Shown here piece by piece: positions 29,605-45,505 of a stretch of DNA of 64,000 nucleotides. Location: IMG/VR virus record IMGVR_UViG_3300045988_141012; one strand, given 5' to 3'. This DNA comes from a virus. Both the position numbers and the translations under genes were made by a program. Position 1 is the first letter of the stretch; every line of letters starts with the position of its first letter. The notes beneath the pieces are model-generated. The model saw only the letters and a list, made by a program, of their open reading frames with translations. It was not told where the DNA came from and ran no database searches.

Positions 29605-32600
29605 ATGGCAAATAAAAATGTTGCAATATTGTCTTTAATGGCACAAGCAGACAATAAAAGTATTAAACAAGCTGTTAATAGCATGGATAAGGCATTACAG
29701 TCTGAAGTTGAAGGAAAGTTTAGTTCGATTGGTGATGAAATAGGAAAACAAGCCGAGGATGCACTAAAAATTTTGAACAGAACTACTTTAAAAGATGTCA
29801 AAGTTACACAACCTGTTAGTGATTTCTTTTTAAATATTTTACGATCAACCTCCGCTGACGATGCTTTGAATTATATTACCGATTTTGCAAATAGAATGGA
29901 AGCATTGCATTCGGTTGTAAAGGAAAGTAAGTTTAATGATTTATTAAATCCTTTGTCGGAGAATCAGATATCTAAATTGTTGTCAGAAGTTGATGAGATT
30001 GCAAAACTCAAACAAAACATAGCAAATAGAAAGGCAAATCTTGTCGAATATAGGAAACAAATTATAGACGCAAATCCGGCACAAACAACCCCTGCCAAAG
30101 CACTTAAACCATATGTCAAAAAAGAGTCTGGTTATACTGTTGATAATAATATTTCTCCGGAACTGTCAGATTTTGTTTCGTCAAATATTGATAAATCAAG
30201 TGAAGATATAAATAAAAAAATTCAACAATATCAACTTTTGTTAAATGTTTTTGAAAAGTTAAATCTTGAAAAAAAACATATGTCAGAAGGATCGGAAGAA
30301 TTAGTTGGTTATAATAATCAATTACAATATGTTTATAATCAAATATTAAAGAAAGAAAAGGCAATTCCTAAATTAAAAGAATTTAGAGAGTCTTTGGCAC
30401 AAAGTGATTCTAAATATGATTTTTTTGACAGAGACCTTGAATATTATAAAAATAACACTAGAGATGCAGCTGATGAATATATCAAAAAACAAAATCGCAT
30501 AGATAATAGCACAATCACAGATATTAGGAGTAAATTGATTGACAAAGCCTTTCAATTTAACGAAAGTTCCGTAGCACGTATTAACGCCAAAAGAGAAAAG
30601 GCTGGATTAAATAACGTTGCCAGACAAAGCGATATGAACGATTCATCTGATTCTGATAATTCAGGAACTGATACTGTTGCAGAGTTGACGAAATCTCAAC
30701 AAAGAATAGCTGACATTCTGAAAATGGATTACGATACTGCTTATAAGAAGATGAGGGAGATACATGAGAAGCTTGTAAAAGACGAAGATTATGAACCTGC
30801 AAAAAAAGAACGTGAAGATTTTTTTGCATTATATGATAGACTTAAAACTGAAGCCCCAGATACTAATATGTTCATTAGTGATGGGAAGGATCGGATTGGT
30901 CTTGATGACACATACGACATGATGAGTACTACATATCCGACTCTCAAAGAGAAACAATTAGCTGATATTCAAAAAGTAAAAGATGTGTTGTCCCAAACTA
31001 ATACAGAGATCAATGTAACCAATTCGGAGCTTAATGTAACTGACGAACAACTATCTAATATAAAAAATAAAATATCAGATATTCGTAAATTAAGTAATGA
31101 AGATTTACTGAAAAAAGTTCAAGAGAGTTCGGATAATATTAGGCTTGCAATAGGTAACGGAAAAGATGTTAATGAAGATGACCTTCGTGAGTTTATTGCT
31201 TTAAGAGAACGTTACAATGAATTGCTTGAAAGTGATGAAGTTGGAGAAAGTTATAAAAATAGTCAATCTAGTATAGATAGGACTTTTAATAAAATCATTG
31301 AACAACATAACGCTGATTATGAAGCAATCATTAATCATCAAAAGGAACTTATTCAGGAAATAGAACAAATCACTCCACCAGAAGTCTCGACGAATGATAT
31401 TAAAGAAGATTCTATAAATGAACCCCCTAAAGAATCCTTAAAAGAAAAAACATCCACCCCACAAAATAATCAATCGGAACTACGGGATTTATATTCGAAA
31501 CTTCAAAAGAGCATGATGGATATCGTATTTAAAGAACGCTCGCCACAAGGAGTTGGAGAAGATGACATTCGTGATTTTATTACATCAAGAGAACATTTTA
31601 ATGAATTACTTCAAAGTAGTGATGTTGGAGAAAACTATAAGGATAAAAAATCAAAGATAGACGATTTTTTTAAGAGGATTACTGAACAATATAACATTGA
31701 TTATGAAAAAATTATCAGTCAACAAGAGGAACTTCTTGAAGAAACAAAGCAACTGTCTACCAGTGAAGATTTCAAGGAAGCGTCTAAGGAAAAACCTAAA
31801 GAAGTAATTAAAGAAGAGCCTAAAGAAGCGATCAAAGAAGAAACATTAAATGTCCCAAATGAAAGTTCTGATGTTTCGTCTGAAGCAACTTCTTTTGAAG
31901 GCTTAAAAACCGCAATCACTCAAGTCACTTCGGCAGTAGATAAAAAGACACAGGCATTTAAAGAAGAAGAACAAGTTGTTACTGGTACTGTTCAGAGGGA
32001 GATTAATTCATTAGATGTTTTAATTGGTACATTGGTAACCATTCAAGAACATATAGAAAAAATCAAAGCCTCGGCGACAGAATTACAAAATATTAATATA
32101 GGTAATGTTTCACCTCAACCCAAAACAACTGCAACAGAAAATTCTTCAAACAATAAACCAGAAAAACTTCAAAACGATTTAAAGACAACTCAATCCAATG
32201 CAGAAACACTTAATCAAACCTTAAAAGAAATCAAAGAAAATTCTACTATTTCTATTAAAATAAAAGCACCTGAAGAAGTCACCTCTAAACTTATAACTCA
32301 ACTAGAAGCTTTAAAGAAAATTTTAGATAATGATTGGTTAAGTAAGGTTCAAGAATTATCTAAGCTTAAAGAATTAAAGAATTTAGGCATTACCGACAAG
32401 GCATTGGACAAGTTTAAAAATCTTAAAACTGGTCTTGACGGTATAGTAAAGAGTTTTAATAAGATTAATGATGGTGGTTTTGCTTTCTTAGATAATCTTA
32501 CAATTTTAGCTCAACAAGGCGAAGCTCTTAAAGATTTAACTACTTTGCTTAAAACAAGCCAAAGTCAATTAACAAATGCACGTAATACAGTAAACAATAA

Positions 32601-35139
32601 TAAGAACTTTATTGATGAAGATGTTTATGATAACAATTCGGAGCAATGGTTAAAGGATAATGTTGATGCTTTAAGTAATAATAGCAAATACATAGGGGTT
32701 TTGGATGCTGAAATTTCTCGTGCCTCAAACGGTATGGTTAAATTCACCGCCAATGTAAAAAATGCTAAAAATGAATGGCAAAAATTAAGTGGTACAGTTA
32801 AGGCAGATGGAAGTCTTACTAATATTTCTTTGAAGAACATACAAGGTAAACAAGCGAATAATCTTGACAATGTTCTTAATGGCAATTCTAACACTTCTCA
32901 ACTATCTAATAAGGAAGATATTTTAAAAGATATTGAGAAGTCACTAAAAACGATTTATGATTATCGCGTTAAGATAGCTTCAACTAACGATACTGATACT
33001 TTAAATGATTTACAATCCAAGTTAAGTTCAGAAGAACAACAATACAAGCAATTGGTTGATAATTACAAAACAAATTATTCTGCACACCCAAATGACTTAG
33101 ATGATGACTTTAGAAATGTTGTCAAACCTGTTAAAGTGAAGGGTAGGAAAAATATAAGAGTTGCTAGTGCAGATGCTATTTTAGATAAAATAACAGAGCA
33201 ACAAGCAGAAGTATCAAAGCTTAAAAACCTCGACGGTAGCATATTCAAGTATGAAGGAGACAACTCATTTGATGATTATCTTCAAGACCAAGAAAATAAA
33301 TTAAATGAATTAATAAAAAAATATAAGCAATATGGCGATGTTGTTCAAGATGTTCAGCAAAAGATAGAAGATACAAAAGTAAACGGTTCAAACGAGGGAA
33401 CATCACAAGCAGACACCCTTAGAGCAAACTATGAGTCTGTAAATAAGATACGTGGAGAGCTTAAAAATGGTAATCAACAAGGTTTTCTTGAGCAATATTA
33501 CGTGAGGGCTAACAAGGCTGTCACAAAGTTGATTGGTAAGCAACAACAAGGTGAAGAAATAACAAAAAAAGAACTTCAAAATGTTCAGAGCCTATATAAC
33601 GAGTATAAGAAAATAGCGAATGCCGGCACACCTCTTGCAGACAATATAAGAGGTAAAGTTAATGCCGATAGTTATATCTTAAATAATGCTAAGCAACAAG
33701 GAACTATAATTTCTCAAGGTGAGTTCAAGGAAACCGACATTTCAAAGGGTCTTGCAACTACTATTATTAAAATCCGTAATGCAAAGGGTGAAATTAGAGA
33801 CCTTCAATATACTTGGCATGACGGTATGATTAGCATGGCTGATAATACCAAGAAAGTTCAAACTTCTTTAGTTGGCGTTCCAAAAATTATGGACGCACTT
33901 TCTAAAAAGTCTAAAGAGTTAATTACATATTGGACGGCTAATTACATAAATCCTTATAAGATAATCGAAATGATTCAAAAAGGTGTCAATATTGTAAAGG
34001 AACTTGATACTGCCCTTGTTGACCTTCGTAAGACTACAACAATGTCTTCGACAGATTTGAAAGATTTCTATTCTGATGCTAATGAGGCAGCAAAAGAGTA
34101 CGGCGTTACAACTAAACAGATTATTGATCAAGCAAGTTCATGGAGTAGACTAGGTTATTCAGACAAGAACAGTGCTACAGAAATGGCAAAATTAAGTTCA
34201 CAATTTGCTACTATCTCTCCTGGAATGGATATAGATAAAGCCACAACAGGATTAGTATCTACGATGAAAGCCTTTGACGTTCAAGTAGATGATGTTAAAG
34301 ACGGAATTATGTCAAAGATTAATTCTGTTGGTAATGCATTTGCTACAAGTAATGACGAAATTATTGACGGTCTGGAACGTTCGGCTTCAGCAATGGCTTC
34401 AACCGGTGCAAGTTTGGAAGATACTATTGCTATTTTTACAGGCGGTCAAGAAATCGTACAAAATGCTGAAAGTGTTGGTTCGGCAATGAAAACCTTCTCA
34501 ATGCGTATTAGAGGTATGGATGAAGAAGGTGAAGCCCTTGACGAATTATCAAATGTCAAAGGTGACGTATATGAGCTAACTAACGGTAAAGTTAGTATCA
34601 TGAAAGATGAAAATACATATCGCAGTATTTACGATATTCTAAAAGATATAGCAGGAGTTTGGGACGACATTACTGATAAAAACAAAGCCAAATTACTTGA
34701 AAAATTATTTGCAAAAACAAGAGCAAATACAGGTGCTGCTATTCTTCAAAACTGGGATCAGGTTGAAAAAGCCGTTAAAACAATGGAAGACAGTGCTGGA
34801 AGTGCTGATAATGAAATGAGCATAGCGGCTGATAGTATTGAATTTAAACTAAATAAGCTATCACAAACTTGGGTAAGTTTTGCCCAAGATACTTTATCAC
34901 AAAATTCATTAAAGGGAACGATTTCTCTTTTAACAGGATTATCACAAACACTTACTGGAATTTTGGGTGTAATTCAAAACATCACATCTCTTGGGGGAAT
35001 ATTACCAAGTGGTGGATTGCTTGGAGACTTGGGAATTGCATCTGGCTTTGTGATGAATAAAATGGGTATTGGTAAACGTACAGTTTCAGTGGTAATGTAC
35101 TGTGCCCACCCCTCTAAGATTATGTATAATGTCACATAA
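29605..35139 (+). CDS. tail tape measure protein (unspliced ORF 1844 aa; predicted splice donor after U35096)
   Basis: Long coiled-coil N-half with internal duplications. A TP901-type TMP core follows (DLRKTTTMSSTDLKDFYSDANEAAKEYGVTTKQIIDQASSWSRLGY...AMKTFSMRIRG), then a G-rich hydrophobic segment. The last 14 codons lie in the intron. Confidence 0.8.
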   Translation: MANKNVAILSLMAQADNKSIKQAVNSMDKALQSEVEGKFSSIGDEIGKQAEDALKILNRTTLKDVKVTQPVSDFFLNILRSTSADDALNYITDFANRMEALHSVVKESKFNDLLNPLSENQISKLLSEVDEIAKLKQNIANRKANLVEYRKQIIDANPAQTTPAKALKPYVKKESGYTVDNNISPELSDFVSSNIDKSSEDINKKIQQYQLLLNVFEKLNLEKKHMSEGSEELVGYNNQLQYVYNQILKKEKAIPKLKEFRESLAQSDSKYDFFDRDLEYYKNNTRDAADEYIKKQNRIDNSTITDIRSKLIDKAFQFNESSVARINAKREKAGLNNVARQSDMNDSSDSDNSGTDTVAELTKSQQRIADILKMDYDTAYKKMREIHEKLVKDEDYEPAKKEREDFFALYDRLKTEAPDTNMFISDGKDRIGLDDTYDMMSTTYPTLKEKQLADIQKVKDVLSQTNTEINVTNSELNVTDEQLSNIKNKISDIRKLSNEDLLKKVQESSDNIRLAIGNGKDVNEDDLREFIALRERYNELLESDEVGESYKNSQSSIDRTFNKIIEQHNADYEAIINHQKELIQEIEQITPPEVSTNDIKEDSINEPPKESLKEKTSTPQNNQSELRDLYSKLQKSMMDIVFKERSPQGVGEDDIRDFITSREHFNELLQSSDVGENYKDKKSKIDDFFKRITEQYNIDYEKIISQQEELLEETKQLSTSEDFKEASKEKPKEVIKEEPKEAIKEETLNVPNESSDVSSEATSFEGLKTAITQVTSAVDKKTQAFKEEEQVVTGTVQREINSLDVLIGTLVTIQEHIEKIKASATELQNINIGNVSPQPKTTATENSSNNKPEKLQNDLKTTQSNAETLNQTLKEIKENSTISIKIKAPEEVTSKLITQLEALKKILDNDWLSKVQELSKLKELKNLGITDKALDKFKNLKTGLDGIVKSFNKINDGGFAFLDNLTILAQQGEALKDLTTLLKTSQSQLTNARNTVNNNKNFIDEDVYDNNSEQWLKDNVDALSNNSKYIGVLDAEISRASNGMVKFTANVKNAKNEWQKLSGTVKADGSLTNISLKNIQGKQANNLDNVLNGNSNTSQLSNKEDILKDIEKSLKTIYDYRVKIASTNDTDTLNDLQSKLSSEEQQYKQLVDNYKTNYSAHPNDLDDDFRNVVKPVKVKGRKNIRVASADAILDKITEQQAEVSKLKNLDGSIFKYEGDNSFDDYLQDQENKLNELIKKYKQYGDVVQDVQQKIEDTKVNGSNEGTSQADTLRANYESVNKIRGELKNGNQQGFLEQYYVRANKAVTKLIGKQQQGEEITKKELQNVQSLYNEYKKIANAGTPLADNIRGKVNADSYILNNAKQQGTIISQGEFKETDISKGLATTIIKIRNAKGEIRDLQYTWHDGMISMADNTKKVQTSLVGVPKIMDALSKKSKELITYWTANYINPYKIIEMIQKGVNIVKELDTALVDLRKTTTMSSTDLKDFYSDANEAAKEYGVTTKQIIDQASSWSRLGYSDKNSATEMAKLSSQFATISPGMDIDKATTGLVSTMKAFDVQVDDVKDGIMSKINSVGNAFATSNDEIIDGLERSASAMASTGASLEDTIAIFTGGQEIVQNAESVGSAMKTFSMRIRGMDEEGEALDELSNVKGDVYELTNGKVSIMKDENTYRSIYDILKDIAGVWDDITDKNKAKLLEKLFAKTRANTGAAILQNWDQVEKAVKTMEDSAGSADNEMSIAADSIEFKLNKLSQTWVSFAQDTLSQNSLKGTISLLTGLSQTLTGILGVIQNITSLGGILPSGGLLGDLGIASGFVMNKMGIGKRTVSVVMYCAHPSKIMYNVT

Positions 35140-35545
35140 TTAACGGACGGGAGTGTTAGCCACTTAAAATAATGACAGATACCTTATATGATAAATATAA
35201 AAAACCGAATATGCTGGGAACCCTAAAGACTATATACAATCCAAAACAGAGCTGGAAACAACAGATGGAATGGTGACGAAAGTCGGAAAGAAACGTATAT
35301 AGTATGTTATATGACGAGAGTCTAAGTAACATTTTATGCTTTTATAATAAAGGAATGGGTAGTCAACAGGTAGGCTTATGCCGAAAGCAGGGAAAGACTA
35401 AGTTCTTAATTGAATATTATGTGAGGTCACAACTCATTGTCTTAACCCCCAGAGACTGACAAGGTTTGGCAAAGATACAGACATAATTGTATATTTGCTG
35501 TGAAATACAGTCCGAACCTTGGGAAACCAAGTTGTGTGTAATTAT
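35097..35545 (+). ncRNA. group I intron catalytic core
   Basis: AUGCUGGGAACCCUAAAG (35211-) is a P3/P4-like element shared with the other two introns. The R-like element ACAGACAUAAU is at 35477-35487 and the P8 hairpin at 35488-35509. The S-like element AUACAGUCCGAACC is at 35505-35518 (compare Tetrahymena AUAUAGUCGGACC). A GNRA hairpin CUUGG-GAAA-CCAAG is at 35518-35531. Confidence 0.6.
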
Positions 35546-35596
35546 ATTAATAGCTTCCGAAAATATTAGTATGATTATAATAATTAAATTAAATAT

Positions 35597-35624
35597 ATTG
35601 ACTTTTCACTTAAATGTGATATAA
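35597..35624 (+). promoter_or_regulatory. sigma-A promoter TTGACT-16 nt-TATAAT with TG extension
   Basis: TTGACT at 35597-35602; TGTGATATAAT ends at 35624. Confidence 0.6.
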
Positions 35625-35630
35625 TATTTA

Positions 35631-35754
35631 TAGAAATAAAAAATGTGGAAACCTAAGACGGTTGCCACAACTGATAATGTTTACACTTATTTGAGATTAT
35701 TTAATCTCAATTATAGTGAGCCAATCTGTTGCAGCAGACGGCTCACTTTTTCTT
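35631..35754 (+). ncRNA. ~120-nt small RNA with three hairpins and its own promoter and terminator; antisense to the 3' part of the minus-strand toxin-like transcript
   Basis: Hairpins: TGTGG/CCACA (35644-35669), TTGAGATT/AATCTCAA (35691-35710) and GTGAGCC/GGCTCAC (35715-35745), followed by TTTTTCTTT. No SD-preceded ORF is present. Confidence 0.5.
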
Positions 35755-35837
35755 TATAATCGCTATTATGTCTTTTATAATTTGATAAATCAAACTTAAA
35801 ATACCACAAATAGCAGCTATATTTACTAAAGTAATTA
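35742..35837 (-). CDS. 31-aa hydrophobic peptide ending KKK (type I toxin-like); AUA/AUU start
   Basis: Minus-strand GAAAGGAGG (35853-35845), then 7 nt, then ATA ATT ... giving (M)ITLVNIAAICGILSLIYQIIKDIIAIIKKK. The stop lies inside the bidirectional hairpin. A minus-strand terminator (hairpin 35669-35644 followed by T-rich TTTTTTATTTCT) lies further downstream. Confidence 0.4.
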
Positions 35838-36087
35838 TGTATCAGCCTCCTTTCAAGAAAATTTCTCGTCAAGAGCTTATACACAGCCTCCATTCCGCTC
35901 AAGCGAGATGAAAGGCAACCGTCATAAACCGTCATACCGTCTACAAAGATGGAGAAAACTCAACTGTATGACGGTATGATTTCCACAACATTATTATATC
36001 AAATTCAACATTAACTGTCAATATATTCTTGTTTGAGCGTATTTTCGGATACGTTCTTTTTGTATGTAACTAAATCATAATAACAAC

Positions 36088-36116
36088 TTTACAACTTATT
36101 TACAATTATTTATAAT
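36088..36116 (+). promoter_or_regulatory. promoter TTTACA-17 nt-TATAAT
   Basis: -35 at 36088-36093 and -10 at 36111-36116. Confidence 0.45.
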
Positions 36117-36163
36117 GTATTGCTATATAATGCCATATATTATATAATTATAGAGAAAACATT

Positions 36164-36373
36164 ATGAAAAAGGATGAGATAAAAATGTATGAATTAACTG
36201 AACAAAAGAAGAATGATATATCTGTCTACGGTATTAAATATGGGAATTTGCAGATAGATGATATATCTGCCGATAAGGATAGGGTTAAAAAATTTGTTAA
36301 CGATATAAATAAGTATCAACTCTCCCCTATTCATTTGGGTGATGTTGTAGAGGATTTTGTGGCGAGTATGTAA
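36164..36373 (+). CDS. small hypothetical protein (69 aa; alternative start 36185)
   Basis: ISADKDRVKKFVNDINKYQLSPIHLGDVVEDFV resembles small DUF6514-type clostridial proteins (recollection, low certainty). AAGGATGAG precedes ATG 36185. Confidence 0.5.
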   Translation: MKKDEIKMYELTEQKKNDISVYGIKYGNLQIDDISADKDRVKKFVNDINKYQLSPIHLGDVVEDFVASM

Positions 36374-36412
36374 TTAAAAATTATCAAAATAAAGTTAAAT
36401 ATTGCATTTTTC

Positions 36413-36441
36413 TTGTAAATATTTTATCTTTGTGATATAAT
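36413..36441 (+). promoter_or_regulatory. promoter TTGTAA-17 nt-TATAAT (TGTGATATAAT)
   Basis: -35 at 36413-36418 and -10 at 36436-36441. Confidence 0.55.
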
Positions 36442-36478
36442 ATTGTTAGATTTTATCGAAAACAAGGAAGTGGATATT

Positions 36479-37216
36479 ATGGCAACTGATAACGAATACA
36501 TATTATTTTTAGATGAAACTGACACTAATGAATCTAACCAATACTTTTGTTTGGCTGGTTTTATTATTAGTAGACAAGAATATGAAAATATTTTAATTCC
36601 TCAAATTAACGAATTAAAAATGAATATATTAAATTTGCCTCATGTCGTTTTTCATTATAAAGATATGAGACAACAAGATAAGGATTTCAAAATTTTAGAT
36701 AATAGTAAATTAAGAGATAATTTTTGGCGAAAATTATGTAATATATTAAAAAATATAAATATAACTACACTCGCTGCATATATTGATGGTGTTAGTTACC
36801 GAAAAAATTATTCTAAAAATATCGCATTATCAGAGTACAATGTTTTATTTAATGAAATAATTAATTCTTTTGTAAATTTTTTACTTAAGAATAATGGAGA
36901 TGGAACTATTATCGTAGAGAGTAGGAATTTGACACAAAATAGAAGCACGCAAAAGTTATATACCACAATGACTCAAACAGGCACTAACATTTATCTTCCG
37001 ACAACAATAAAGAGAAAGATTTCAACTTTGAATTTTAACATAAAAAAAGATAATTGTATAGGACTTCAGATTGCAGATATGATACCTTTGGTTTTGGTTC
37101 GTCGTATTCATGGCAAGTCTAATCCTTATACTTTATATAATATTTTTAGTTCTAAATTGTATAAAAACAATCAATCTTCGGTTGATGGTTATGGTTTTAT
37201 AAAAGTTTTAAGATAA
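36479..37216 (+). CDS. DUF3800-like protein
   Basis: N-terminal YILFLDETDTNES...FCLAGFII (YIDESG-type motif) and C-terminal LQIADMIPLVL. ATG 36479 follows AAGGAAGTGG. The track's TTG 36443 sits immediately after the -10 box (36436-41), at or upstream of the expected TSS. Confidence 0.5.
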   Translation: MATDNEYILFLDETDTNESNQYFCLAGFIISRQEYENILIPQINELKMNILNLPHVVFHYKDMRQQDKDFKILDNSKLRDNFWRKLCNILKNINITTLAAYIDGVSYRKNYSKNIALSEYNVLFNEIINSFVNFLLKNNGDGTIIVESRNLTQNRSTQKLYTTMTQTGTNIYLPTTIKRKISTLNFNIKKDNCIGLQIADMIPLVLVRRIHGKSNPYTLYNIFSSKLYKNNQSSVDGYGFIKVLR

Positions 37217-37220
37217 TTTA

Positions 37221-37249
37221 TTGACAAATATCATATAATATGATATACT
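37221..37249 (+). promoter_or_regulatory. promoter TTGACA-17 nt-TATACT
   Basis: -35 at 37221-37226 and -10 at 37244-37249 (TGATATACT). Confidence 0.55.
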
Positions 37250-37262
37250 TTCATTGTAGATA

Positions 37263-37322
37263 AGAACGGTGTAACTGTCGCTTATTTACGTTTCTTGTGT
37301 ATAGAACGGTGTAACTGTCGCT
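37263..37322 (+). repeat. two perfect 20-nt direct repeats AGAACGGTGTAACTGTCGCT, 40 nt apart, plus a third GGTGTAAC core at 37356-37363
   Basis: Copies at 37263-37282 and 37303-37322. They lie in a transcribed leader between a promoter and a terminator. Confidence 0.8.
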
Positions 37323-37350
37323 ATATGTAAGTCATGAAATGGAGGTAGAG

Positions 37351-37404
37351 ATGATTGGTGTAACCATGATTCTCATAATAACAAACGGCAAAGGTCACGG
37401 TTAA
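37351..37404 (+). CDS. 17-aa leader peptide candidate MIGVTMILIITNGKGHG
   Basis: GGAGGT lies 5 nt before the ATG, and the stop codon sits inside the terminator loop. Confidence 0.3.
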   Translation: MIGVTMILIITNGKGHG

Positions 37405-37425
37405 TACCGTGGCTTTTGTTGTTTT
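37394..37425 (+). terminator. intrinsic terminator / attenuator
   Basis: GGTCACGG-TTAATA-CCGTGGC followed by TTTTGTTGTTTT. Confidence 0.6.
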
Positions 37426-37461
37426 GCGTTTGAAAATATTTTTTAAAATTGTCATATTTTG

Positions 37462-37490
37462 TTGAAATATATATACTTTCTTGATATAAT
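37462..37490 (+). promoter_or_regulatory. promoter TTGAAA-17 nt-TATAAT (TGATATAAT)
   Basis: -35 at 37462-37467 and -10 at 37485-37490. Confidence 0.55.
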
Positions 37491-37527
37491 ACAATAAAGT
37501 AAAATTATCAAGGATGGTTTGGCTAAT

Positions 37528-38394
37528 ATGAAGAAAAAGAGTTTTATAAGGATATTGTTGTTGTATTTACTGTTTTATGTGATTTTAAGTTCAATATTTG
37601 TTGTCATTTATAGTATTAATGCCGATGACGACATACCATTAAAAGAATTGATTATGTTTTCATTTGCAAAAAGCGTAAATTGCTCGTTAGATTCCCCTAT
37701 TACAATTTCTAATAATATAATTATGATAATTCAAAGTATAATCAGTCAACTAGGTATGGCAGTTTTAACGGCATATTTACTATGTAGCATATTTAATGTT
37801 AGCGGAGACAATGTTCAATTATTGGATACTATGATTATTAGGGATCGTGGCATAAATGGTATATCTCCATGCGTAATGGTTCTTAATAAAAATAAAGATT
37901 GTATATATAATATTAAATGTACTGTGCGTATTTTAAAATTTGATAAATCCATTACCAGACATCAAGGACACCCATTGTATAGAACAAAATTATTAAATGA
38001 AATAGAATTAAATGCTATAGAAATTGAAAATTATTATCGTTTCTCATTTTCAATAGATAGTCTTCCAACAGAAATATGGGCAGATATTGTAGAGTTTCAA
38101 AATAATAACAAGGATAATATAGCTGTTAATTATCCTTGGAAAATATCAGTAGTAATTACCGGCGTTTTAAATAATTATGGTGGAAACTTTTTAATAAAAA
38201 GAAATTACACAATTAATGATATTTCAATAGCTAAAGGCACTGAACCAATTAATTCCATTAAGTATGTAAATGGACAATTTGTAAAAACAAAATGTAATTG
38301 GAACAATGCTGAAATTATACAAGAATACGAGTATCCAGAAAAGCTTAGAATAATTCAAGAAATTAAGAATTACATAAGTAAAAGTCACAAATAA
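37528..38394 (+). CDS. membrane protein: two TM helices flanking a short re-entrant-like segment, plus a ~190-aa soluble beta-rich domain (ion-channel-like architecture)
   Basis: TM1 is IRILLLYLLFYVILSSIFVVIYSI and TM2 is IIMIIQSIISQLGMAVLTAYLLCSIF. The layout resembles 2-TM (Kir-type) channels, but there is no GYG filter. ATG 37528 lies 10 nt after AAGGATGG. Confidence 0.55.
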   Translation: MKKKSFIRILLLYLLFYVILSSIFVVIYSINADDDIPLKELIMFSFAKSVNCSLDSPITISNNIIMIIQSIISQLGMAVLTAYLLCSIFNVSGDNVQLLDTMIIRDRGINGISPCVMVLNKNKDCIYNIKCTVRILKFDKSITRHQGHPLYRTKLLNEIELNAIEIENYYRFSFSIDSLPTEIWADIVEFQNNNKDNIAVNYPWKISVVITGVLNNYGGNFLIKRNYTINDISIAKGTEPINSIKYVNGQFVKTKCNWNNAEIIQEYEYPEKLRIIQEIKNYISKSHK

Positions 38395-38460
38395 TTAAGT
38401 TCGCCGGCAATTATGGCTTATTTTTGTAGAATGACATTTGTTAAAGATAATAATGATACA

Positions 38461-38496
38461 AAAGACTTACCTCTTAATGAGATAAGTCTTTTTTGA
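38461..38496. terminator. bidirectional terminator between convergent genes
   Basis: AAAGACTTA (38461-38469) pairs with TAAGTCTTT (38483-38491), followed by TTTT. Confidence 0.6.
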
Positions 38497-38500
38497 TGCA

Positions 38501-38965
38501 TCAGAACTTACACCCACATTTATTACACTTATAAGTCTTACCCAAGTCCCCTGCCCCGAAGATACCGAACAAGCCTATCTTCCCTGCTTTTGAAAGATTT
38601 GATATTTTTGATAAGTCTGTGCTGTTGCAGTGTGGACAGTGAGGCAAGCCGGATTGCAATTCTGCAATCTTTGCGTCGTGTTGTTTTTCAAATTGTAAAT
38701 ATCGTGTTCTATATTCAATGATATCATCTTTGCGAAGTTTAACCATTGCTTCTATGAATTCAGGGTCTTTGGTTTGTCCCCAAAGAATCATAAATTCACT
38801 ATCCGGTATATCAACAGGCTCTCCCTCGCAATGATGTTTAGGACAAATTCTTGGTGGAACTTCCCAGTTGGATTCTTTGCAAAATTCTTCGCTTAATTTC
38901 CTAAAGAAACCATCACCCGTCTCTTCTTTACACTTAGGACAAAAGAGTACAATATGCGTTTCCAT
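38501..38965 (-). CDS. double zinc-ribbon protein (154 aa), opposite strand, G+C-richer than its surroundings
   Basis: CPKC...CPKHHC near the N-terminus and CPHCNS...CNKCGCKF at the C-terminus. Minus-strand GGGAGG lies 7 nt before the ATG. Confidence 0.65.
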   Translation of the reverse strand: METHIVLFCPKCKEETGDGFFRKLSEEFCKESNWEVPPRICPKHHCEGEPVDIPDSEFMILWGQTKDPEFIEAMVKLRKDDIIEYRTRYLQFEKQHDAKIAELQSGLPHCPHCNSTDLSKISNLSKAGKIGLFGIFGAGDLGKTYKCNKCGCKF

Positions 38966-39074
38966 AATTATACCTCCCTATGATTTTTATTGTTATCTAC
39001 ATTATATACCAAAAGACGGTGTATTTCAAGTATAATTTACCAATAGTTATCGGAAGTAACTATTCAGAATTAAA

Positions 39075-42000
39075 TTGGCAGTACAATACAATTCTGAAAA
39101 AGGTAAAATATATTATCCTTGGAAACAAGCAATAAAATCACTTGGAGCTAAACCACGTACTGAAATCACACAAGAAGAAATTGATTGGTGGGACGACGAG
39201 ACTAATAGTCCCAAAGAGGTTCAGGCTCATCTAAAGGGTCAGCCAAAAGAAAAACAAGCCGAAATTCTTGAATCGTACAAAATTCCAACTAAAGAGTTAG
39301 AGAAGTTTGTTACAGCACAAGAACATGCCAATGATGGCGTTGAAGAATATAAAGCCGCACTTGCTGCCGCAGGCAATCAAGGTTCAAAGTTCGGTGGTAT
39401 AGTAAAGAGTATCGGTGCAAGCCTTGCAAGTGCCGGTATTAATATGCTTATAGGCATAGGCATTGACTTACTTATCAAGGGCATTGATAAAGCAATTCAT
39501 TATAGCGAAGATTTGAGAAAAGCTTCTACGGAATTGACTAATCAGTATAAAGAAGAACAAGAATCTTTAGATGATAGTCGTCAAAGTTATGAAGAATTAG
39601 CTCAAAAAATGCAGAATGCTAATTTGACAACTGATGAAGTCAAATCAAACAAAGAAGAACTTTCAAAAATTCAACAAGACCTTATAGACAAATTTGGATT
39701 AGAAGCTGAAGGAATTGACCTTGTTAATGGTAAATACGACGAGCAAATAAAGAAACTTGATGAAATTGAAAGACAAAAAGCTAAAGATTATGTCCGTAAT
39801 GAACAAGGCAATATCGGTGCAGACAAAGATAAAATTAATAAACAAAAAAAAGTTACTACAAGACAACCAATATACGGCATATTTACTGACAATTTATTGA
39901 CTGATGCATTACCATCACTTCAAAAATCAGTATCTTTGAATACACCGACTGTTTTTTATTCAGTAAAAGGGAATATTGGTGATTTATATGAAGAACTAAC
40001 AAATGCTTATGATAAAATTGCCAAAGAAAAGGGCATAAATGAACAAACACAGGATTCTTTAGATGTAATTAATAAGTTAATAAATGGCTTAAAATATGAT
40101 GATTATGCACAATCTTTGAATAATATAAAGGAATATTCAAAAGCACTTGTGTTATCAAATAATAATTATTATGATGTTTATACAGATTTACAAAATGCTA
40201 TAAATGATTATAATACTGCATTGCAAAGTGGGGAAAATATAGATCAAGCATTTGATAACTTAACAAGAATTCAAAATAAAGTTACTTTAATCACTCAAGG
40301 TGCGGATGATGCGAAATATGCTTTTGATGATTTATTGGATAGTATTGATAGAGGTAGTGAAACCGACCACAAGATAAAAGTAGGTCTTGAAACCAATAAA
40401 GATGAAGTTCAAAATATTCTACAAAGCTTTAAAGACAACGGAGTAAAGACAACAGACCTTTTTGACATTGATATAAATGCAGACGATACTAACATTCCTG
40501 AAATTCAGCAACAATTTAAAGATTTATGTCGCATATTAGGTATCACTCAAGATGAAGTAGACACTTTACTTACAAAGCTATCAGATGACAATGTTATCAT
40601 TGACATTGACAGCGAAGCGAAATCAGTTTCAGATTTTACAAAGAATGTTACTGATTTGACTACAAGTATAAGGAAGACAGAGCGGTCTTGGAAATACTAT
40701 GCTCAAATCGCAGACGTTGTAAACGGTAAGACTGCTATGACTGATGAACAAATGTCTGATTTGGTTAAAGAATTTCCTGATTTAAAGAAAAAGTTAAAAC
40801 TTACAACTGAGGGTTGGTCTTTGGAATCAGGTGCAATGGACGTTGTTCAAAATGGTATTGCTGACCTACAATCTGCATATTTAAATGCACAAATTGATAT
40901 GTCAAATGGTGCATATAATGCAATGATGGCTCGTGTTGGTACTAATATGGAAGAATTGAATCAAATCCAAAATATTAGTCAGGCATATGCTATTCTTGCT
41001 CGTAATTGGGGTAATACAAAATCACTTGCAGTCATCAATACTAATGGCAAAAATGTTATTGATACAAGTAACTTGAGTACGGATGAACAGTTTGTCGTCC
41101 AATATGCTACTATGCAAATTGCATCAAAAAAGGCAAAGGACAGACTTAAAGCTGCTAATTCTTTAGGGTCTGATGACAATGAAAAGAAAAAAGATTCGGC
41201 GAAGAGAACTTATGATAAAAAGGTTAAAGAAATCAACGAGAAACAATATGATGCTGATTTCAAATATCAAATTGATACTGTAACAAATGCTTTAAAAGCC
41301 TATACAGAACAAGTTGAAGCCTTAAAAACTGCATATGACGGTTTATATGAAAAAGATTATTCCGGTAAAATGGATTTGCTTAATCAGAGGTACTTGGTTC
41401 AGACTCAATATGCTCAAAGATTACATCAAGAATTAGATAGTTTAATAAATTCAGTTCCTGAAACCTCATCTTCTTGGTCGGAATTAGCTTCTACTCTTGA
41501 AACAGTATCAAATGATTACTTCGAAGCTCAGAAAAATCTTATAGAATATCGTGATACAATTTACGAAACATCCATTGATTCAATAAGCGACTCTGCAAAA
41601 GGTATTGTTGACCAAGTTAAAAATGCTAAAAGTTTGTTGGATAATTCTTTTGATTATCTCAAAAATGGTTCTTTAGCAGGCGACGGTCTTTGGTCTACTC
41701 CCCTAACACCTTCTGTTTCAAAAGATAAGGTTTCTCAAGAACGAGCAGACAAGAAAAAGTTATTAGAGGAAGAAAAGAAATATCAAAATAAGATTCAAGA
41801 AATTCGTCAACGTGCAACAAAAGAAGCAAAGGATTATGATGATGCACAACGTCAAGAAGAATTACAAGACGCTTTAGACGATTACAATAGTGCTATTGAA
41901 CAAGCAACTGCTTCTGCAACGGCGGCATATACGGATTTTAACGATAGTTGGTACGAGGATACCAAGCTTACTCTTGATGAATTACAACAGTATTTTGATG

Positions 42001-45000
42001 AACACGGCATTAATATCAAACTTAATGTAAAAACTGCCGAAGAATTAGAACAAGAAGCTCAAGAAAAAGCACAAGAAGAAGGTACCAGCATTATAGATAA
42101 GACTGAGGGCAATAGTTTTTCTAATGTTAAAAGTCTTTCATCAGATAAAGCTAAATTCTATAATGACATTGCAAAAGGCAAATCAAGTGTAAAAGCAAGT
42201 GATATAAAGAATAGTATTGATGGAATTCCATTAGACGCAAAAATTAAGCGTGACGGTCATATTTATCGTGGTGATGAAGATTTAGGTACTTGGGGTGTTT
42301 CAAATCACAAGTTTGTATACGCTGAAAAGTATGCCAAAGGCGGTACAACATCACAAGGACTTACAATCACAGGTGACGGTACGGGAGTATATGCAGGACA
42401 AGAAGCGTATATAGGACAAGACGGCAAACTTCATCTATTCAATAATGAAGCACAACTATCTGAATTACCTCCGAATACTCGCATTGTCAATGCAAAAGAC
42501 TTGCAGAATATCATTAAATATACTGGTATGAAGTATTTTTATCAGCCTATTGAAAATATTCAATCTGCAACGGTTGATAAGTTTGCACAAGGCAATACAA
42601 ATGTTTCATTCTCCCCTATTCCATATAATACATTGTCTACTCAAACATTGTATTCAGATGTTAACGTACAAGCAATGGTTGAAGAGACTATTGCGGAAAT
42701 CAACAATGAGTTTAATGCTTTAAAAGGCAATATAAAATTTAGTGCGGTACAAACTGCATTCAAGAACAGTCTGACTGATAAGAAGATGTACAAAGACTTA
42801 TCAAACACTATTGTTAATATGACATCGCAGTCGCTTGACAAAGCTGATAAGAGTACACTTTCAGATTCGGTTGTTGGACTTATTTTGCAAAATTCAGTTT
42901 GGAATGATTTACCGAATGAATTGCAGAATAAATTGTCTGAATTGAATGTAAATGCAGATAATTGGACTGATTGGATACAAGACTCAAATAATTCACTTCA
43001 AGCATTTAACCTAATGCAAGATGGTGGAATGAGTAGTTGGGATTTGCTTGATAGCAACGTAACTTCTCTGTTACAACAAGCAGGTATTAATGGCAAAGAC
43101 GCTTGGGATAAATTTGTACAAGATGACCCACTACAAGCATTGACTTTGTTATCATCTTCTTGGAATAGTATGAATGATACTATTGGGCAATATATGACAG
43201 ATGCTCAAACCATTGCTGCCAATGGGGCAAGAGCTATTCAATCACTACAAATAATTGCACCGTCTATATCGGAGCAATCTTGGAACGCATTGCAAGTATT
43301 GATTGCTAATAAGATACAAGAAATCATATCATTAATGAATGAAGTGTTTGGTGAAAATACAGTTGATATGAACTTTGCTATCAATGTGGGCGGAAGTTTA
43401 CAAGGAAATGCACAGACTAACCCGCAAGGCGAAAGTGCGGTAGTCGATTCTGCCCGTAAGTATCTTGGAACACCTTATGTTTGGGGTGGTACTTCTCCAT
43501 CTGGTTTTGATTGTAGCGGATTTGTACAATATGTATTAGCTGAAAATGGTAAATCAGTGCCGAGAACTTCTCAAGAACAATTTGCGTCAGGTCAAGCTGT
43601 TGATAAAAGTAATCTTCAAGCTGGTGACTTAGTGTTCTATAATTGGAGTGGAGGAACAGAAGCAACCCATGTAGGAATATATGAAGGCAATGGTAAGATG
43701 ATTCACGCACCGCATCCAGGCGATGTTGTCAAGGAAGTTGACTTTAATTCTTACGGTCAAAATGTTTATCTTGGTGCAAGACGTTATTATAAAGGTACTG
43801 AGGGTGCATTGCCTGGACTTGCTAAACTCGGTGATGAAGCAGAAGTAAGAGGATTAAACTATCCTACACCTGAAATTCTTATCAGACAAAAGACAGGTAA
43901 AGCATATCTTACTGGTTTAGATGGCACACAGATTGTTAATCTTGACAGAGGTGATACAGTTATCCCTTATGCCGATACAAAGCGAATTTTAAACGGCAAT
44001 GTACGTCATGCTTATGCTAATGGTACACCAAATGCAAAAGACGCTATATCAAGGATTTTAGGCATAAACAATGTCAAGAATAGAGTGAATAACGGCTCTG
44101 CAAGAAGTAATAATTCGGGTATAACAAATAATACAGTTCAACAATCGTGGGATACAAATGATTTCGGACAAGGCGTAGGTAAGTCACATTCATATACCGC
44201 TTTTGACGAAAATGGATATTTGGGTTCATCGCTTGGATATTGGGATACAAGTTCAAGTGCTTGGAAACTATTTAAGAAGTTGTTGGATAGCGGTGATTTA
44301 TCAACCGATGAGAATGGCATCTATACATATAAAGGTGCTCGTCTTGTAGCAATGACATCTACTTTTGGTAAGCCTGGAGATGTTATGAGATACACTCAAG
44401 ATGACGGTAGTGTATTTTACGGTATCATAATGGACGAGAAGTCGCAAGCATATACTTGGTACGATAATAACCCTGCCAACAAGTGGGGTCATAACAACGG
44501 ACAAGATATGGTTGAATTTGAAGTTAAGAAATCAGCGATTGCTCCTGCTTATAAAGCTAACGGTGGTACTCCTCCATATGGTAATCTAAATCATGCGATT
44601 ACTTTAATTGAGAATTTAGGTTCGTTGGAAGGCTTTGATTTTTCTGATATGCCTTCTGTCGGCGGAACTTCTGTATTAACTCAAAAAATGCAAGAGTTTA
44701 TGTCTAAGCTTCAACAAGTTTATGGTACATTCAAGACTAATACTCATACATCGGCTACTAAGGTCGGCAATGTAAAGTCTTTAGGTGACAAAAAGCAAAG
44801 TAGTTATAGCTTTGATGTACCATTTACTCAAAGAGAAAAAGGTGGCATTGCTCCTGCTGGAACAGTTGTATTAGGTAATGAATATCGTAGGACTGAAGCA
44901 ACTATTGACGAAAAAGGTAATGTTGTTCCATTGGGTGACGGTACTCCACAAGTATTTGTTTCTGACAAGCCATTCCCTGTTATTAACGCTGATGACTATG

Positions 45001-45398
45001 CTAAGATTAAGAAGTATGGCGGTGATAAAAAGCCGGTACAGTTCTTAAAGAATGGTAATACATCAGTCAGTGTTAATGCCGATAATACAGACGAAGAAAA
45101 GGAACAAACTGCCGAAGAACGTAAAGCAGAAGAAAAAGAAAAAGAACGTCTTGGTTTCCTTGAAAGTATTTCTAAAAATTTAACCAAAGGCACATTGGAT
45201 GATGAAATCAAAGGTTATGATTATGATACTTTAAAAGGTTTAAAAGAAATGTCTGAATCTTGGGGGAAAGATGACGACCTTACTTCTGAAATCTTAAAGA
45301 GTTTTAAAGACTATGCTGAAGATTTCTCAAAATTGGACGATTGGATTGAGAATGACCTTGAAGATACTTTAAATACCTATAATGAAGACTTTTATTAA
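39075..45398 (+). CDS. giant tail/tape-measure-like protein segment with NlpC/P60 peptidase domain (ORF 2107 aa; modelled as internal exon 39068-45395)
   Basis: No ATG and no SD; the track M is TTG and the frame is open back to 39060. Contains a hydrophobic G-rich segment, long coiled coils and NlpC/P60 (YLGTPYVWGGTSPSGFDCSGFVQY...THVGIY...MIHAP, nt ~43440-43750). The stop TAA is formed by the first three intron nucleotides. Confidence 0.75.
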   Translation: MAVQYNSEKGKIYYPWKQAIKSLGAKPRTEITQEEIDWWDDETNSPKEVQAHLKGQPKEKQAEILESYKIPTKELEKFVTAQEHANDGVEEYKAALAAAGNQGSKFGGIVKSIGASLASAGINMLIGIGIDLLIKGIDKAIHYSEDLRKASTELTNQYKEEQESLDDSRQSYEELAQKMQNANLTTDEVKSNKEELSKIQQDLIDKFGLEAEGIDLVNGKYDEQIKKLDEIERQKAKDYVRNEQGNIGADKDKINKQKKVTTRQPIYGIFTDNLLTDALPSLQKSVSLNTPTVFYSVKGNIGDLYEELTNAYDKIAKEKGINEQTQDSLDVINKLINGLKYDDYAQSLNNIKEYSKALVLSNNNYYDVYTDLQNAINDYNTALQSGENIDQAFDNLTRIQNKVTLITQGADDAKYAFDDLLDSIDRGSETDHKIKVGLETNKDEVQNILQSFKDNGVKTTDLFDIDINADDTNIPEIQQQFKDLCRILGITQDEVDTLLTKLSDDNVIIDIDSEAKSVSDFTKNVTDLTTSIRKTERSWKYYAQIADVVNGKTAMTDEQMSDLVKEFPDLKKKLKLTTEGWSLESGAMDVVQNGIADLQSAYLNAQIDMSNGAYNAMMARVGTNMEELNQIQNISQAYAILARNWGNTKSLAVINTNGKNVIDTSNLSTDEQFVVQYATMQIASKKAKDRLKAANSLGSDDNEKKKDSAKRTYDKKVKEINEKQYDADFKYQIDTVTNALKAYTEQVEALKTAYDGLYEKDYSGKMDLLNQRYLVQTQYAQRLHQELDSLINSVPETSSSWSELASTLETVSNDYFEAQKNLIEYRDTIYETSIDSISDSAKGIVDQVKNAKSLLDNSFDYLKNGSLAGDGLWSTPLTPSVSKDKVSQERADKKKLLEEEKKYQNKIQEIRQRATKEAKDYDDAQRQEELQDALDDYNSAIEQATASATAAYTDFNDSWYEDTKLTLDELQQYFDEHGINIKLNVKTAEELEQEAQEKAQEEGTSIIDKTEGNSFSNVKSLSSDKAKFYNDIAKGKSSVKASDIKNSIDGIPLDAKIKRDGHIYRGDEDLGTWGVSNHKFVYAEKYAKGGTTSQGLTITGDGTGVYAGQEAYIGQDGKLHLFNNEAQLSELPPNTRIVNAKDLQNIIKYTGMKYFYQPIENIQSATVDKFAQGNTNVSFSPIPYNTLSTQTLYSDVNVQAMVEETIAEINNEFNALKGNIKFSAVQTAFKNSLTDKKMYKDLSNTIVNMTSQSLDKADKSTLSDSVVGLILQNSVWNDLPNELQNKLSELNVNADNWTDWIQDSNNSLQAFNLMQDGGMSSWDLLDSNVTSLLQQAGINGKDAWDKFVQDDPLQALTLLSSSWNSMNDTIGQYMTDAQTIAANGARAIQSLQIIAPSISEQSWNALQVLIANKIQEIISLMNEVFGENTVDMNFAINVGGSLQGNAQTNPQGESAVVDSARKYLGTPYVWGGTSPSGFDCSGFVQYVLAENGKSVPRTSQEQFASGQAVDKSNLQAGDLVFYNWSGGTEATHVGIYEGNGKMIHAPHPGDVVKEVDFNSYGQNVYLGARRYYKGTEGALPGLAKLGDEAEVRGLNYPTPEILIRQKTGKAYLTGLDGTQIVNLDRGDTVIPYADTKRILNGNVRHAYANGTPNAKDAISRILGINNVKNRVNNGSARSNNSGITNNTVQQSWDTNDFGQGVGKSHSYTAFDENGYLGSSLGYWDTSSSAWKLFKKLLDSGDLSTDENGIYTYKGARLVAMTSTFGKPGDVMRYTQDDGSVFYGIIMDEKSQAYTWYDNNPANKWGHNNGQDMVEFEVKKSAIAPAYKANGGTPPYGNLNHAITLIENLGSLEGFDFSDMPSVGGTSVLTQKMQEFMSKLQQVYGTFKTNTHTSATKVGNVKSLGDKKQSSYSFDVPFTQREKGGIAPAGTVVLGNEYRRTEATIDEKGNVVPLGDGTPQVFVSDKPFPVINADDYAKIKKYGGDKKPVQFLKNGNTSVSVNADNTDEEKEQTAEERKAEEKEKERLGFLESISKNLTKGTLDDEIKGYDYDTLKGLKEMSESWGKDDDLTSEILKSFKDYAEDFSKLDDWIENDLEDTLNTYNEDFY

Positions 45399-45505
45399 AC
45401 GAGTCAAGAACACTCGTGACTTTAGTCATGAGATGAATTGACGAGAATAGTAAGCACGTAGGGAAACTTGCGTGTAGTGGTGCTTATGGCATCCAATACT
45501 ACTTG

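Follow-up and report, generated by a model that had tools for sequence, protein, structure and literature searches.

The DNA analysed here, called the window throughout, is a 64,000-nucleotide stretch from the IMG/VR virus record IMGVR_UViG_3300045988_141012 and belongs to an SPbeta-like phage of gut Clostridia with low GC content. Its tape measure protein (TMP) gene is found in pieces. A first open reading frame (ORF), at 29605-35139, encodes 1844 residues with a PF10145 domain. A second, at 39075-45398, encodes 2107 residues with an NlpC/P60 motif and starts at a TTG codon; as a sequence-only reading of the window had pointed out, it has neither an ATG nor a Shine-Dalgarno sequence. That reading had also assigned the end of the first TMP ORF to a group I intron, with a multi-gene island in its 3' peripheral part. 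This core claim held throughout the clade, the observation itself being partly confirmed and its interpretation partly supported. In silico, the locus presents a split gene, a conserved architecture, pairing of a guide sequence with both exons that co-varies between lineages, and turnover of the enclosed genes. A group I intron (35074-39077, about 4.0 kb) probably splits the TMP gene, and its peripheral insert holds independently expressed accessory genes.

According to this reading, exon 1 (29605-35073, plus strand) comprises 1823 codons with the PF10145 domain and the first hydrophobic segment, directly after which the intron is located, and its C-terminal end reads ...FVMNKMGIG. Exon 2 (39078-45395, plus strand) comprises 2106 codons with the second hydrophobic segment and the NlpC/P60 domain. 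Exon 3 (47167-49587, plus strand) lies downstream of a group A IStron that occupies 45396-47166 on the same strand, between exons 2 and 3, and that contains a group I core and TnpB. If both introns are removed, the full TMP would amount to approximately 4735 residues.

The relatives used for comparison include seven IMG/VR contigs (L007-L013) that are 95-99% identical to the window at the intron locus, and L035, the nearest distinct lineage with 52% identity. Genes similar to YonD, YomX, YomV and YomU adjoin the same tail genes in relatives of the window. The relatives in the genome collection stem from metagenome-assembled genomes of an uncultured Clostridia and a Ruminococcus, and the L024-type lineage, which has a 1-kb intron, is present as a prophage in the cultured Ruminococcus sp. 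AF12-5, the source of P0234. Among INPHARED phages, blastn with the window gave no match at the DNA level, and in tblastn against the cultured phages the PF10145 domain was the sole match.

Homologues were searched with 300 residues on either side of the proposed junction as the query. The exon-1 homologues formed about 60 clusters, and in all of them the similarity ended within a few residues of the motif ...F..K-N-x-G, followed by 2-50 unrelated codons and the end of the ORF. The exon-2 homologues found in the same search all started at the codon used by the window ORF, and there were no others. A full HMMER scan with the exon-2 N-terminus retrieved many long TMPs that contain this region in their interior. 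These uninterrupted TMPs contain hydrophobic segment 1, a linker, hydrophobic segment 2 and the '...ELTxxY...' region in one ORF, and the TMP is likewise a single ORF in the cultured relatives Sundance and PMBT24. With P0128, P0179, P0142, P0138, P0098, P0135 and others, the spliced window protein gave one BLAST segment that was unbroken at the junction. P0128 reads ...LSTKNIGIFSLDDNNN; in L022, part 1 ends ...LSFKNIG and part 2 begins IFKTIDNNG. Because uninterrupted TMPs align as one segment through the junction, the two halves belong, judged by these alignments, to one gene.

A different account of the same split is that no splicing takes place: the ribozyme-like RNA would be a relic, the TMP would consist of two polypeptides, the second started at TTG 39075, and an ordinary accessory island would lie between them. 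The TTG is kept in 10 of 10 window-lineage sequences compared around the 3' junction (the ten variants), the indels just upstream of it resemble non-coding DNA, and the TTG is the start that gene callers assign to the homologues P0001 and P0002. The window-lineage clusters of part 1 all end here, as do the best 120 clusters of the L024-type gene, which stop at the same position. On the other hand, no Shine-Dalgarno sequence precedes the TTG, and no sigma-A-type plus-strand promoter was found in the 100 nucleotides before exon 2. In L035 the codon is ACG, and no start codon occurs within 16 further conserved codons. A conserved STIF(K/G)TI stretch lies upstream of any start codon in L022, L028 and L029, and in L024, L025 and L026 the changes upstream of the first ATG or TTG are synonymous third-position changes (GGU/GGC, AUU/AUC, AAG/AAA, ACG/ACA). 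By their codon patterns, the relatives thus have an exon 2 that is coding upstream of any start codon. Moreover, the invariant UUG would equally fit the last three bases of the intron, and a relic would not be expected to retain 8-19 bp of guide-exon complementarity with compensatory changes, as described below. We regard the two-polypeptide account as unlikely.

The boundaries of the proposed intron were placed at 35074 and 39077 (4004 nucleotides, plus strand); it would start with AAACGUACAG and end with AAUUAAAUUG, with G39077 as the omega-G. A candidate internal guide sequence, UGUACUGU-G-CCCA, is located at 35096-35108 and consists of a P10 strand (35096-35103) and a P1 strand (35104-35108). 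Its GCCCA pairs with the end of exon 1, so that G35104 forms a U.G wobble pair with the last exon-1 base at the splice site, and UGUACUGU pairs with the first eight nucleotides of exon 2, GCAGUACA. P1 comprises 3 bp plus 1 after a mismatch with U35073 at the splice site, or 5 bp with U35067. The end of exon 1 reads AAU AAA GCG GGA AUC GGU in L035 and AAU AAA AUG GGU AUU GGU in the window. Because two of these changes are synonymous (GGU/GGA and AUU/AUC), the residues GIG appear to be coding, and 35073/35074 is preferred over 35067, which is a possible alternative 5' splice site.

At the 3' end, a 14-nucleotide block, UUGGCAGUACAAUA, is invariant in the ten variants while its flanks vary. L007, L012 and L013 share the exon-1 end and the first 110 intervening bases with the window, and have eight instead of seven nucleotides between the hairpin-proximal G and UUGGCAGUACAAUA, the 3' end of L013 being of the L001/L003 type. 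This indel places any conserved 3' splice site at its own position or past it. Protein homology and reading frame leave G39077 (phase 0) together with a 5' site after a U-ending codon near K-N-x-G, and the junction 35073/39078 is in frame in every window-lineage variant. The best-supported junction is therefore 35073/35074 with 39077/39078. The ligated RNA is predicted to read ...AUGGGUAUUGGU/GCAGUACAAUAC..., which with other flank lengths is ...GGTATTGGT/GCAGTACAA or ...ATGGGTATTGGT/GCAGTACAATAC, whereas the 35067 variant would give ...AAAATGGGT/GCAGTAC; for the L024-type gene, ...AAGAACGTGGCT/TCTGCTATAAAAGG is predicted. The junction-spanning tryptic peptide would be MGIGAVQYNSEK or MGAVQYNSEK. 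Another candidate guide, GAUACCU (35178-84) with a 5' site at 35070, gave 7 bp and was rejected, since it lacked a P10 and neither L035 nor L034 supported it.

The sequence-only reading had located the splice sites elsewhere, proposing IStron-style splicing from U35096, with a P1 of 35089-96 paired to 35155-63, to G39067 of UUCAG, with the junction ...GTGGTAAT/AATTAAATTGG. This P1 has 8 bp and a single bulge, joining the two sites in the window keeps the reading frame, and group A IStrons canonically end in UCAG (PMC4227781); as that reading had noticed, the IStron of the window has the same UUCAG end (GGUUCAG). In L007, L012 and L013, however, the fusion runs into a stop codon (AUA AUU AAA AUU GGC AGU ACA AUA UGA). 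The TCAG at 39064-67 is absent at this spot in L001-L003, UUCAG reading UUAAG in L001/L002 and UUUAG in L003 and L013. No P10 was found for this junction, and the protein similarity stops earlier, at K-N-x-G. These splice sites and their P1 were replaced by the guide at 35096-35108 and the junction 35073/39078, and a splice from U35096 to G39067 is considered very improbable.

The guide arrangement recurs in other lineages, where the rule for P1 and P10 covers the window, L035, L024-27, L031, L022 and L019, with L028/L029 and L004 left out. In L035 (intron of 7246 nucleotides) the guide UUGUACUAU pairs over 9 bp with AUAGUACAA at the start of exon 2, and in L024-26 (about 1.0 kb) CUUUUAUAGUAGA pairs over 13 bp with UCUGCUAUAAAAG. 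The introns of L027 and L031 (about 1.0 kb) have an 8-bp P10 between GUAACAGA and UCUGUUAC, equal in length to that of the 4.0-kb window intron, whereas those of L022 (9.1 kb; AUUGUUUUGAAUGU with AUAUUCAAAACAAU) and L019 (7.0 kb; UUGUUAUUGUUUUGAAUAU with AUAUUCAAGACAAUGACAA) reach 14 and 19 bp, respectively. In all of these lineages the intron ends in G, an exon U is opposite the guide G and the fusion is in frame; P10, 8-19 bp in the window and four further intron lineages, always lies directly 5' of the wobble G. Between L035 and the window, P10 differs by one compensatory change (C-G to U-A) and one change from G.U to A-U, and between L027/L031 and L024 two positions are compensatory. With the junction fixed beforehand by protein homology and frame, the decoy p value of P10 was ~0.005 for the window, 0.001 for L035, 0.002 for L027/31 and ~0.0001 for L024-26. 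For L022 and L028 a second splice option with a U-A pair at the site was dropped in favour of the KNIG/IFKTI site, which matches P0128 and has a P10 of 14-19 bp. In these comparisons the guide is complementary to both exons and changes in step with exon 2, and both P1 and P10, as expected of a group I intron, can be assigned.

Downstream of the guide, a ribozyme core was modelled by hand at 35202-35531 (plus strand), not derived from a covariance model. P3 is formed by 35202-06 and 35463-67, J3/4 and P4 extend over 35207-17, and P4' (35363-68) contains one C.A mismatch. P7 (GACUG at 35454-58 with CAGUC at 35508-12) encloses the P3' strand GGUUU and the 11-bp P8 (35469-79 with 35488-98). J8/7 (UGUGAAAUA, 35499-507) fits the consensus in its GAAAUACAGUC, and P9 (CUUGG-GAAA-CCAAG, 35518-31) has a GAAA loop. 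In this model the P3-P7 pseudoknot of the group I core fold can be formed. The motifs AUGCUGGGAACCCUAAAG (J3/4-P4-P5) and AUACAGUCCGAACC (J8/7 and the 3' strand of P7) and the GAAA hairpin (P9), all quoted in the sequence-only reading, were recovered in place; its 'R-like' element at 35477-87 falls inside P8 instead, the 5' strand of P7 being GACUG 35454-58.

Comparison between lineages supports these helices. Pairing in P3, P7, P8 and P9 is kept despite different sequences in the window, L035, L024 and L028. P3 is AAACC/GGUUU in the window, UGUC/GACA in L035 and CAAAGGG/CCCUUUG in L024; P7 is GACUG/CAGUC or GACUA/UAGUC, and GACCA/UGGUC in the IStron; P9 is CUUGG/CCAAG or CAGGGC/GUCCUG, with GAAA loops in both the window and L035. 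Among the near-identical relatives the P9 loop changes from GAAA to GAGA, the lone P8 mismatch G.A is G.U in most, and three variable P4 positions are all wobble-compatible. RNAalifold with six sequences recovered P7 enclosing P8. The window core matches that of L035 (E 1e-9), and its J3/4, P4 and P5 region (P3-P6) aligns with the core of the window's IStron. The L024 core matches two window cores, at 20389-20496 and 45506-45611 (nhmmer E 5e-5 and 2e-4; blastn 1e-10), which are those of an intron with a GIY-YIG ORF and of the IStron confirmed by the Rfam model RF00028, and which are closely similar to each other.

Several observations weigh against an active intron of this kind. The sequence-only reading had named the Rfam group I model as a check on itself, and RF00028 (gathering threshold 50 bits) gave no match at E<=10 in 35050-35650, so that a 'td/Tetrahymena-like' core was not borne out by the covariance model. 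The result was also null for the 4.6-kb window stretch, for four relatives together, and for short stretches of L024 and L028, although the core helices of the latter two are readable by eye. A positive control of the same scan size detected the IStron core at 68 bits, which a default whole-window Rfam scan had overlooked. The minimum free energy of the fold is not significant (z-score only -0.97), the C.A mismatch in P4 occurs in every window-lineage variant, and no clean model of P4-P6 was obtained, the register being ambiguous in L035. P1 is short, and the ambiguity of the 5' splice site amounts to six nucleotides. An unconstrained scan for P1 and P10 was not significant, since 78% of decoy 3' regions reached the same sum, which is why the junction was fixed first from protein evidence. 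That reading had also pointed to related phages for intron-less alleles; no intron-less close allele or spliced cDNA was found in protein, viral and metagenome collections, using junction-spanning protein queries (window and L024) and, for viral and metagenome contigs, exact DNA patterns of the junction. The sole 20-nucleotide match to a junction pattern, in L037, was a chance match in unrelated DNA. Finally, several plus-strand terminators, each a hairpin with a T-run read by eye, lie inside the intron, a simple scan marked three plus-strand terminator-like sites there, one of which is P9, and two strong antisense promoters oppose the pre-mRNA. The null Rfam result, the P4 mismatch, the internal terminators and the missing intron-less allele would also suit a relic RNA. 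A group I intron is still the probable explanation, and splicing itself is inferred.

Two hairpins flank the accessory genes, hereafter the cargo, of this intron. Hairpin A (35546-35570, plus strand) forms the left edge and has the loop CUUCCGA (35554-35560). Hairpin B (AUAGUUA-UCGGAAG-UAACUAU, 39043-39063, plus strand) is followed by UUCAG (39063-67) and a 10-nucleotide stretch of variable length, and its loop UCGGAAG is complementary to that of hairpin A. In L035 the stem of hairpin A is CCAUA/UAUGG with an unchanged loop, and hairpin B occurs with five stem variants, all of which pair; the complementary 7-nucleotide loops are thus invariant, L035 included, while both stems co-vary. The two loops are read as a possible 7-bp kissing contact across the cargo. 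The sequence-only reading had drawn a 14-bp long-range helix here. The complementarity between 35550-35560 and 39050-39064 is real, but it is better described as loop kissing; the extended helix of 12-14 bp is an alternative pairing that needs hairpin B to be opened. The competing local hairpin suggested by the same reading is backed by compensatory changes in relatives.

The same flanks could instead be sites of DNA recombination, the cargo being a transposon-like or invertible element bounded by inverted repeats. Hairpin A and the reverse complement of hairpin B do resemble terminal inverted repeats (AATAG-CTTCCGA ... TCGGAAG-taa-CTATT; in the RNA, AAUAG-CUUCCGA is complementary to UCGGAAG-uaa-CUAUU). 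In the 7.2-kb intron of L035, the 24-nucleotide hairpin-A motif ATAGATGACTTCCGAAAACATTAT is duplicated (11331-11354 and 13240-13263) and its copies bracket one cargo module, which hints that cargo was gained by recombination there. The cargo also turns over fast, and L022 carries a TnpB in it. Such an element could explain how cargo enters, but not why a P10 partner inside conserved exon-2 coding sequence co-varies, and it leaves the split reading frame unexplained. In addition, no ORF of the window cargo matched a transposase, TnpB or recombinase. As a complete account of the locus, a DNA-level element is therefore highly improbable; as a means of cargo entry it is compatible with the group I intron.

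The cargo takes up about 3.5 kb of the intron, after the first ~500 nucleotides with guide and core. The sequence-only reading had counted five transcription units, one of them on the opposite strand; six were found, two on the minus strand, and the promoters it had assigned to the units were confirmed as strong ones of sigma-A type. Unit 1 (35598-35750, plus strand) has the promoter TTGACT-16-TATAAT and a predicted non-coding transcript of ~110 nucleotides ending in a hairpin and T-run, a terminator read by eye. It overlaps the 3' end of unit 2 (35743-36021, minus strand) in antisense; unit 2 has a promoter with 12/12 consensus positions (36021-35993), the Shine-Dalgarno sequence AAGGAGG and a hydrophobic ORF of ~30 codons (35838-35743) that begins AUA/AUU, with no ATG, GTG or TTG. 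This convergent pair (35598-36021) looks like a type I toxin-antitoxin system and is kept in L007-L013. Next follow genes for a DUF6514 protein of 69 residues (36164-36373, plus strand; Pfam E 9e-10), conserved in L007-L013, and for a DUF3800 protein (36473-37216, plus strand; Pfam E 5e-11), which belongs to the variable part and is replaced in relatives. A predicted membrane protein of 288 residues with no family match (37528-38394, plus strand) is also part of the variable region. Between these two genes, at 37221-37500, a strong promoter is followed by two 20-nucleotide direct repeats, AGAACGGTGTAACTGTCGCT (~37264 and ~37304), a small Shine-Dalgarno-led ORF (MIGVTMILIITNGKGHG), a terminator hairpin and a second promoter before the membrane-protein gene; the arrangement resembles an operator together with a leader or attenuator.

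The last cargo gene encodes a zinc-ribbon protein (38501-38965, minus strand) and has its own promoter (39029-39001). In every lineage examined, exon 2 is immediately preceded by a minus-strand homologue of 107-204 codons, with equivalents next to the 3' splice site in L001, L003, L004, L019, L022 and L024-L029. Twelve aligned homologues share a C-terminal CPxC...FG..G...CxxCG domain, while their N-termini differ, comprising a double zinc ribbon, a SHOCT domain or a transmembrane segment. No nuclease motifs and no informative family matches were found in this family, and PHROGs and PADLOC returned no function for the window cargo or the zinc-ribbon gene.

Compared with L007-L013, the left part of the window intron (to ~36400) and the right part (from ~38460) are conserved, whereas 36403-38461 is swapped for 1.3-2.3 kb of other DNA. 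By sequence, cargo is exchanged between near-identical phages. Relatives carry zeta-toxin-like kinases (L007 and L008), ImmA/IrrE peptidases (L009 and L011), GmrSD-type nuclease domains (L019 and L022) and MurT with GatD (L028), and L022 has, besides TnpB, a Bro-N/ANT antirepressor and a helix-turn-helix regulator. The intron itself occurs once, at the same homologous TMP site, in every relative examined, and looks fixed rather than mobile.

Terminators inside an intron raise the matter of how its 3' splice site is transcribed. As the sequence-only reading had noticed, the window encodes a phage RNA polymerase (3184-5796, plus strand); it is a YonO-type single-subunit enzyme (PF05183, E 1.5e-16), and its gene is at the head of the late region. 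In SPbeta, the late genes form one operon that is transcribed by YonO, an enzyme that ignores pause signals, is more processive than the bacterial polymerase and has no flap domain, which is needed for hairpin-dependent termination (PMC5467207). These properties and the presence of a homologue in the window make read-through of the cargo terminators by the YonO-type enzyme plausible. Just downstream of the polymerase gene, at the head of the late region, lies a full-length ROOL RNA (6780-7367, plus strand; RF03087, 355 bits); an unannotated non-coding RNA is present at the equivalent place in SPbeta (PMC5467207).

With internal terminators and convergent antisense genes, a continuous precursor of 4-9 kb is awkward, and the conserved complementary loops flank the cargo. 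Both points could be accommodated by a split intron that is trans-spliced: the 5' half would be on the transcript of exon 1, the 3' end on that of exon 2, made from its own promoter, and the loop-loop or long-range pairing would join the two. No good plus-strand promoter was found between the antisense gene and exon 2, however, only ~35 nucleotides of the intron would go with exon 2, and a processive phage polymerase, with SPbeta late genes transcribed as one unit, speaks for a single precursor. We give trans-splicing scarcely any credence.

A cis-spliced group I intron would work as follows. In the lysogen, the host polymerase would express the cargo from its own promoters and halt at the cargo terminators. 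Late in infection, the YonO-type polymerase would transcribe the entire late operon across the cargo. The core would fold, presumably as a catalytic RNA, and the guide at 35096-35108 would pair with the end of exon 1, with U35073 or U35067 opposite G35104. Once exon 2 is made, the same guide would pair with its first eight nucleotides as P10, and the loop-loop contact may help to bring G39077 to the core. Ligation would yield ...FVMNKMGIG/AVQYNSEKGK..., and removal of the downstream IStron one continuous TMP. In a broader scenario, an ancient TMP intron fixed throughout the clade would serve as a safe harbour for accessory and defence genes, with 1-9 kb of cargo swapped at a hairpin-flanked site, expressed in the lysogen, and spliced out by means of a long P10 and a loop clamp from a precursor made by the terminator-insensitive YonO-type polymerase. 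This scenario may be right, and it may equally well prove wrong.

The build of the intron recalls that of IStrons (CdISt1/group A), which have a group I ribozyme at the 5' end and foreign DNA in a peripheral stem-loop after P9, flanked by inverted repeats (PMC4227781). Group A IStrons are inserted after TTGAT, ATTAT or TTTAT and have their 3' splice site at the G of TCAG. In the window, likewise, the cargo is bounded by P9 and hairpin A on its left and by hairpin B on its right, UCAG is present near the 3' end, and the P3-P6 sequences resemble those of the window's own IStron. Unlike IStrons, the cargo has no tnpA or tnpB match, and the accessory units are unrelated and reach up to 9 kb in relatives. 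The element occupies one fixed site of one gene clade-wide, whereas IStrons are multi-copy and scattered. Its apparent 3' splice site is 10 nucleotides past UCAG, its P10 is unusually long, and its core has no P7.1/P7.2 insert and no RF00028 match. Because neither an Rfam score nor an IStron transposase was found, the element was classed as a giant, accessory-gene-carrying group I intron of IStron-like build.

Group I introns are known in TMP genes, namely IVS1-3 of Bacillus cereus-group prophages (PMC2504315). They share with the window the host gene, exon recognition by P1 and P10 and the occurrence of several introns per TMP (two in the window, three in relatives). They differ in their length of 0.3-1.5 kb, in carrying no more than a single sense-strand ORF for a homing endonuclease, and in their patchy distribution (PMC2504315). 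The conserved ORF of the window type is instead antisense with no recognisable endonuclease, the multi-gene insert is variable, and the intron is present in every sampled member. As in phage moron or accessory hotspots, the cassettes have their own promoters and terminators, are swapped between near-identical genomes and encode toxin, defence or cell-wall functions (zeta toxin, GmrSD, ImmA/IrrE, MurT/GatD, DUF3800). Unlike such hotspots, this one interrupts the coding sequence of an essential structural gene, and the intron would neutralise it at the RNA level. Organellar group I introns may host a cellular gene, such as rps3 in the fungal mitochondrial rnl intron, which is similarly a stable home for a gene other than a homing endonuclease; there, however, a single sense-strand gene is expressed from intron RNA, whereas the window has several units on both strands with rapid turnover.

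To our knowledge, the group I introns of bacteria and phages carry no more than a homing endonuclease or, in the case of IStrons, an insertion sequence. If the present reading is correct, the intron would, as far as we know, be among the largest bacterial group I introns and the first with a multi-gene cargo unrelated to mobility. A self-splicing RNA would then make the interior of an essential gene a neutral place for acquiring genes, and intron biology would be linked to the YonO-type polymerase. How a ribozyme reaches a 3' splice site 4-9 kb away is a question to which the long P10 and the loop clamp offer testable answers. In current annotations of these abundant gut phages, the TMP gene is recorded as two or three unrelated ORFs, and the 'intergenic' islands between them would be intronic.

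The window and its relatives contain further introns. The IStron, whose core (45450-45777) scored the 68 bits mentioned above and whose TnpB ORF is at 45930-47054, is inserted after TTTAT and ends at TCAG. Precise IStron-less alleles are present in L008 and L001, and L011 has the same element elsewhere (6067-7831). A third group I intron (~20340-21490, plus strand), flanked by ORFs 19912-20367 and 21504-22184, contains a GIY-YIG/NUMOD homing endonuclease ORF (20768-21481), and over 187 nucleotides its core (20378-20691) shares 95% identity with part of the IStron core. In L008-L013, an extra insert of ~518 nucleotides at ~9483-10000, corresponding to window position 34272, interrupts TMP exon 1 and is absent from the window and L007; that of L008 scored 21 bits with RF00028 (E 0.004), its 5' exon apparently ending in C, not U. 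Group II introns and inteins were never serious candidates for the split at 35074-39077, given its size and the lack of their signatures.

The TMP exon-1 homologues P0064-P0077 are cut short elsewhere in PF10145, for instance after MRIRG, and share short tails (...YVQKCA*, ...Y.LCA*), which suggests a further intron family at several TMP sites. In L001, the exon-2 homologue is called as two ORFs of 427 and 2360 residues that are 367 nucleotides apart (3000-3367), and this gap may be another intron or a frameshift.

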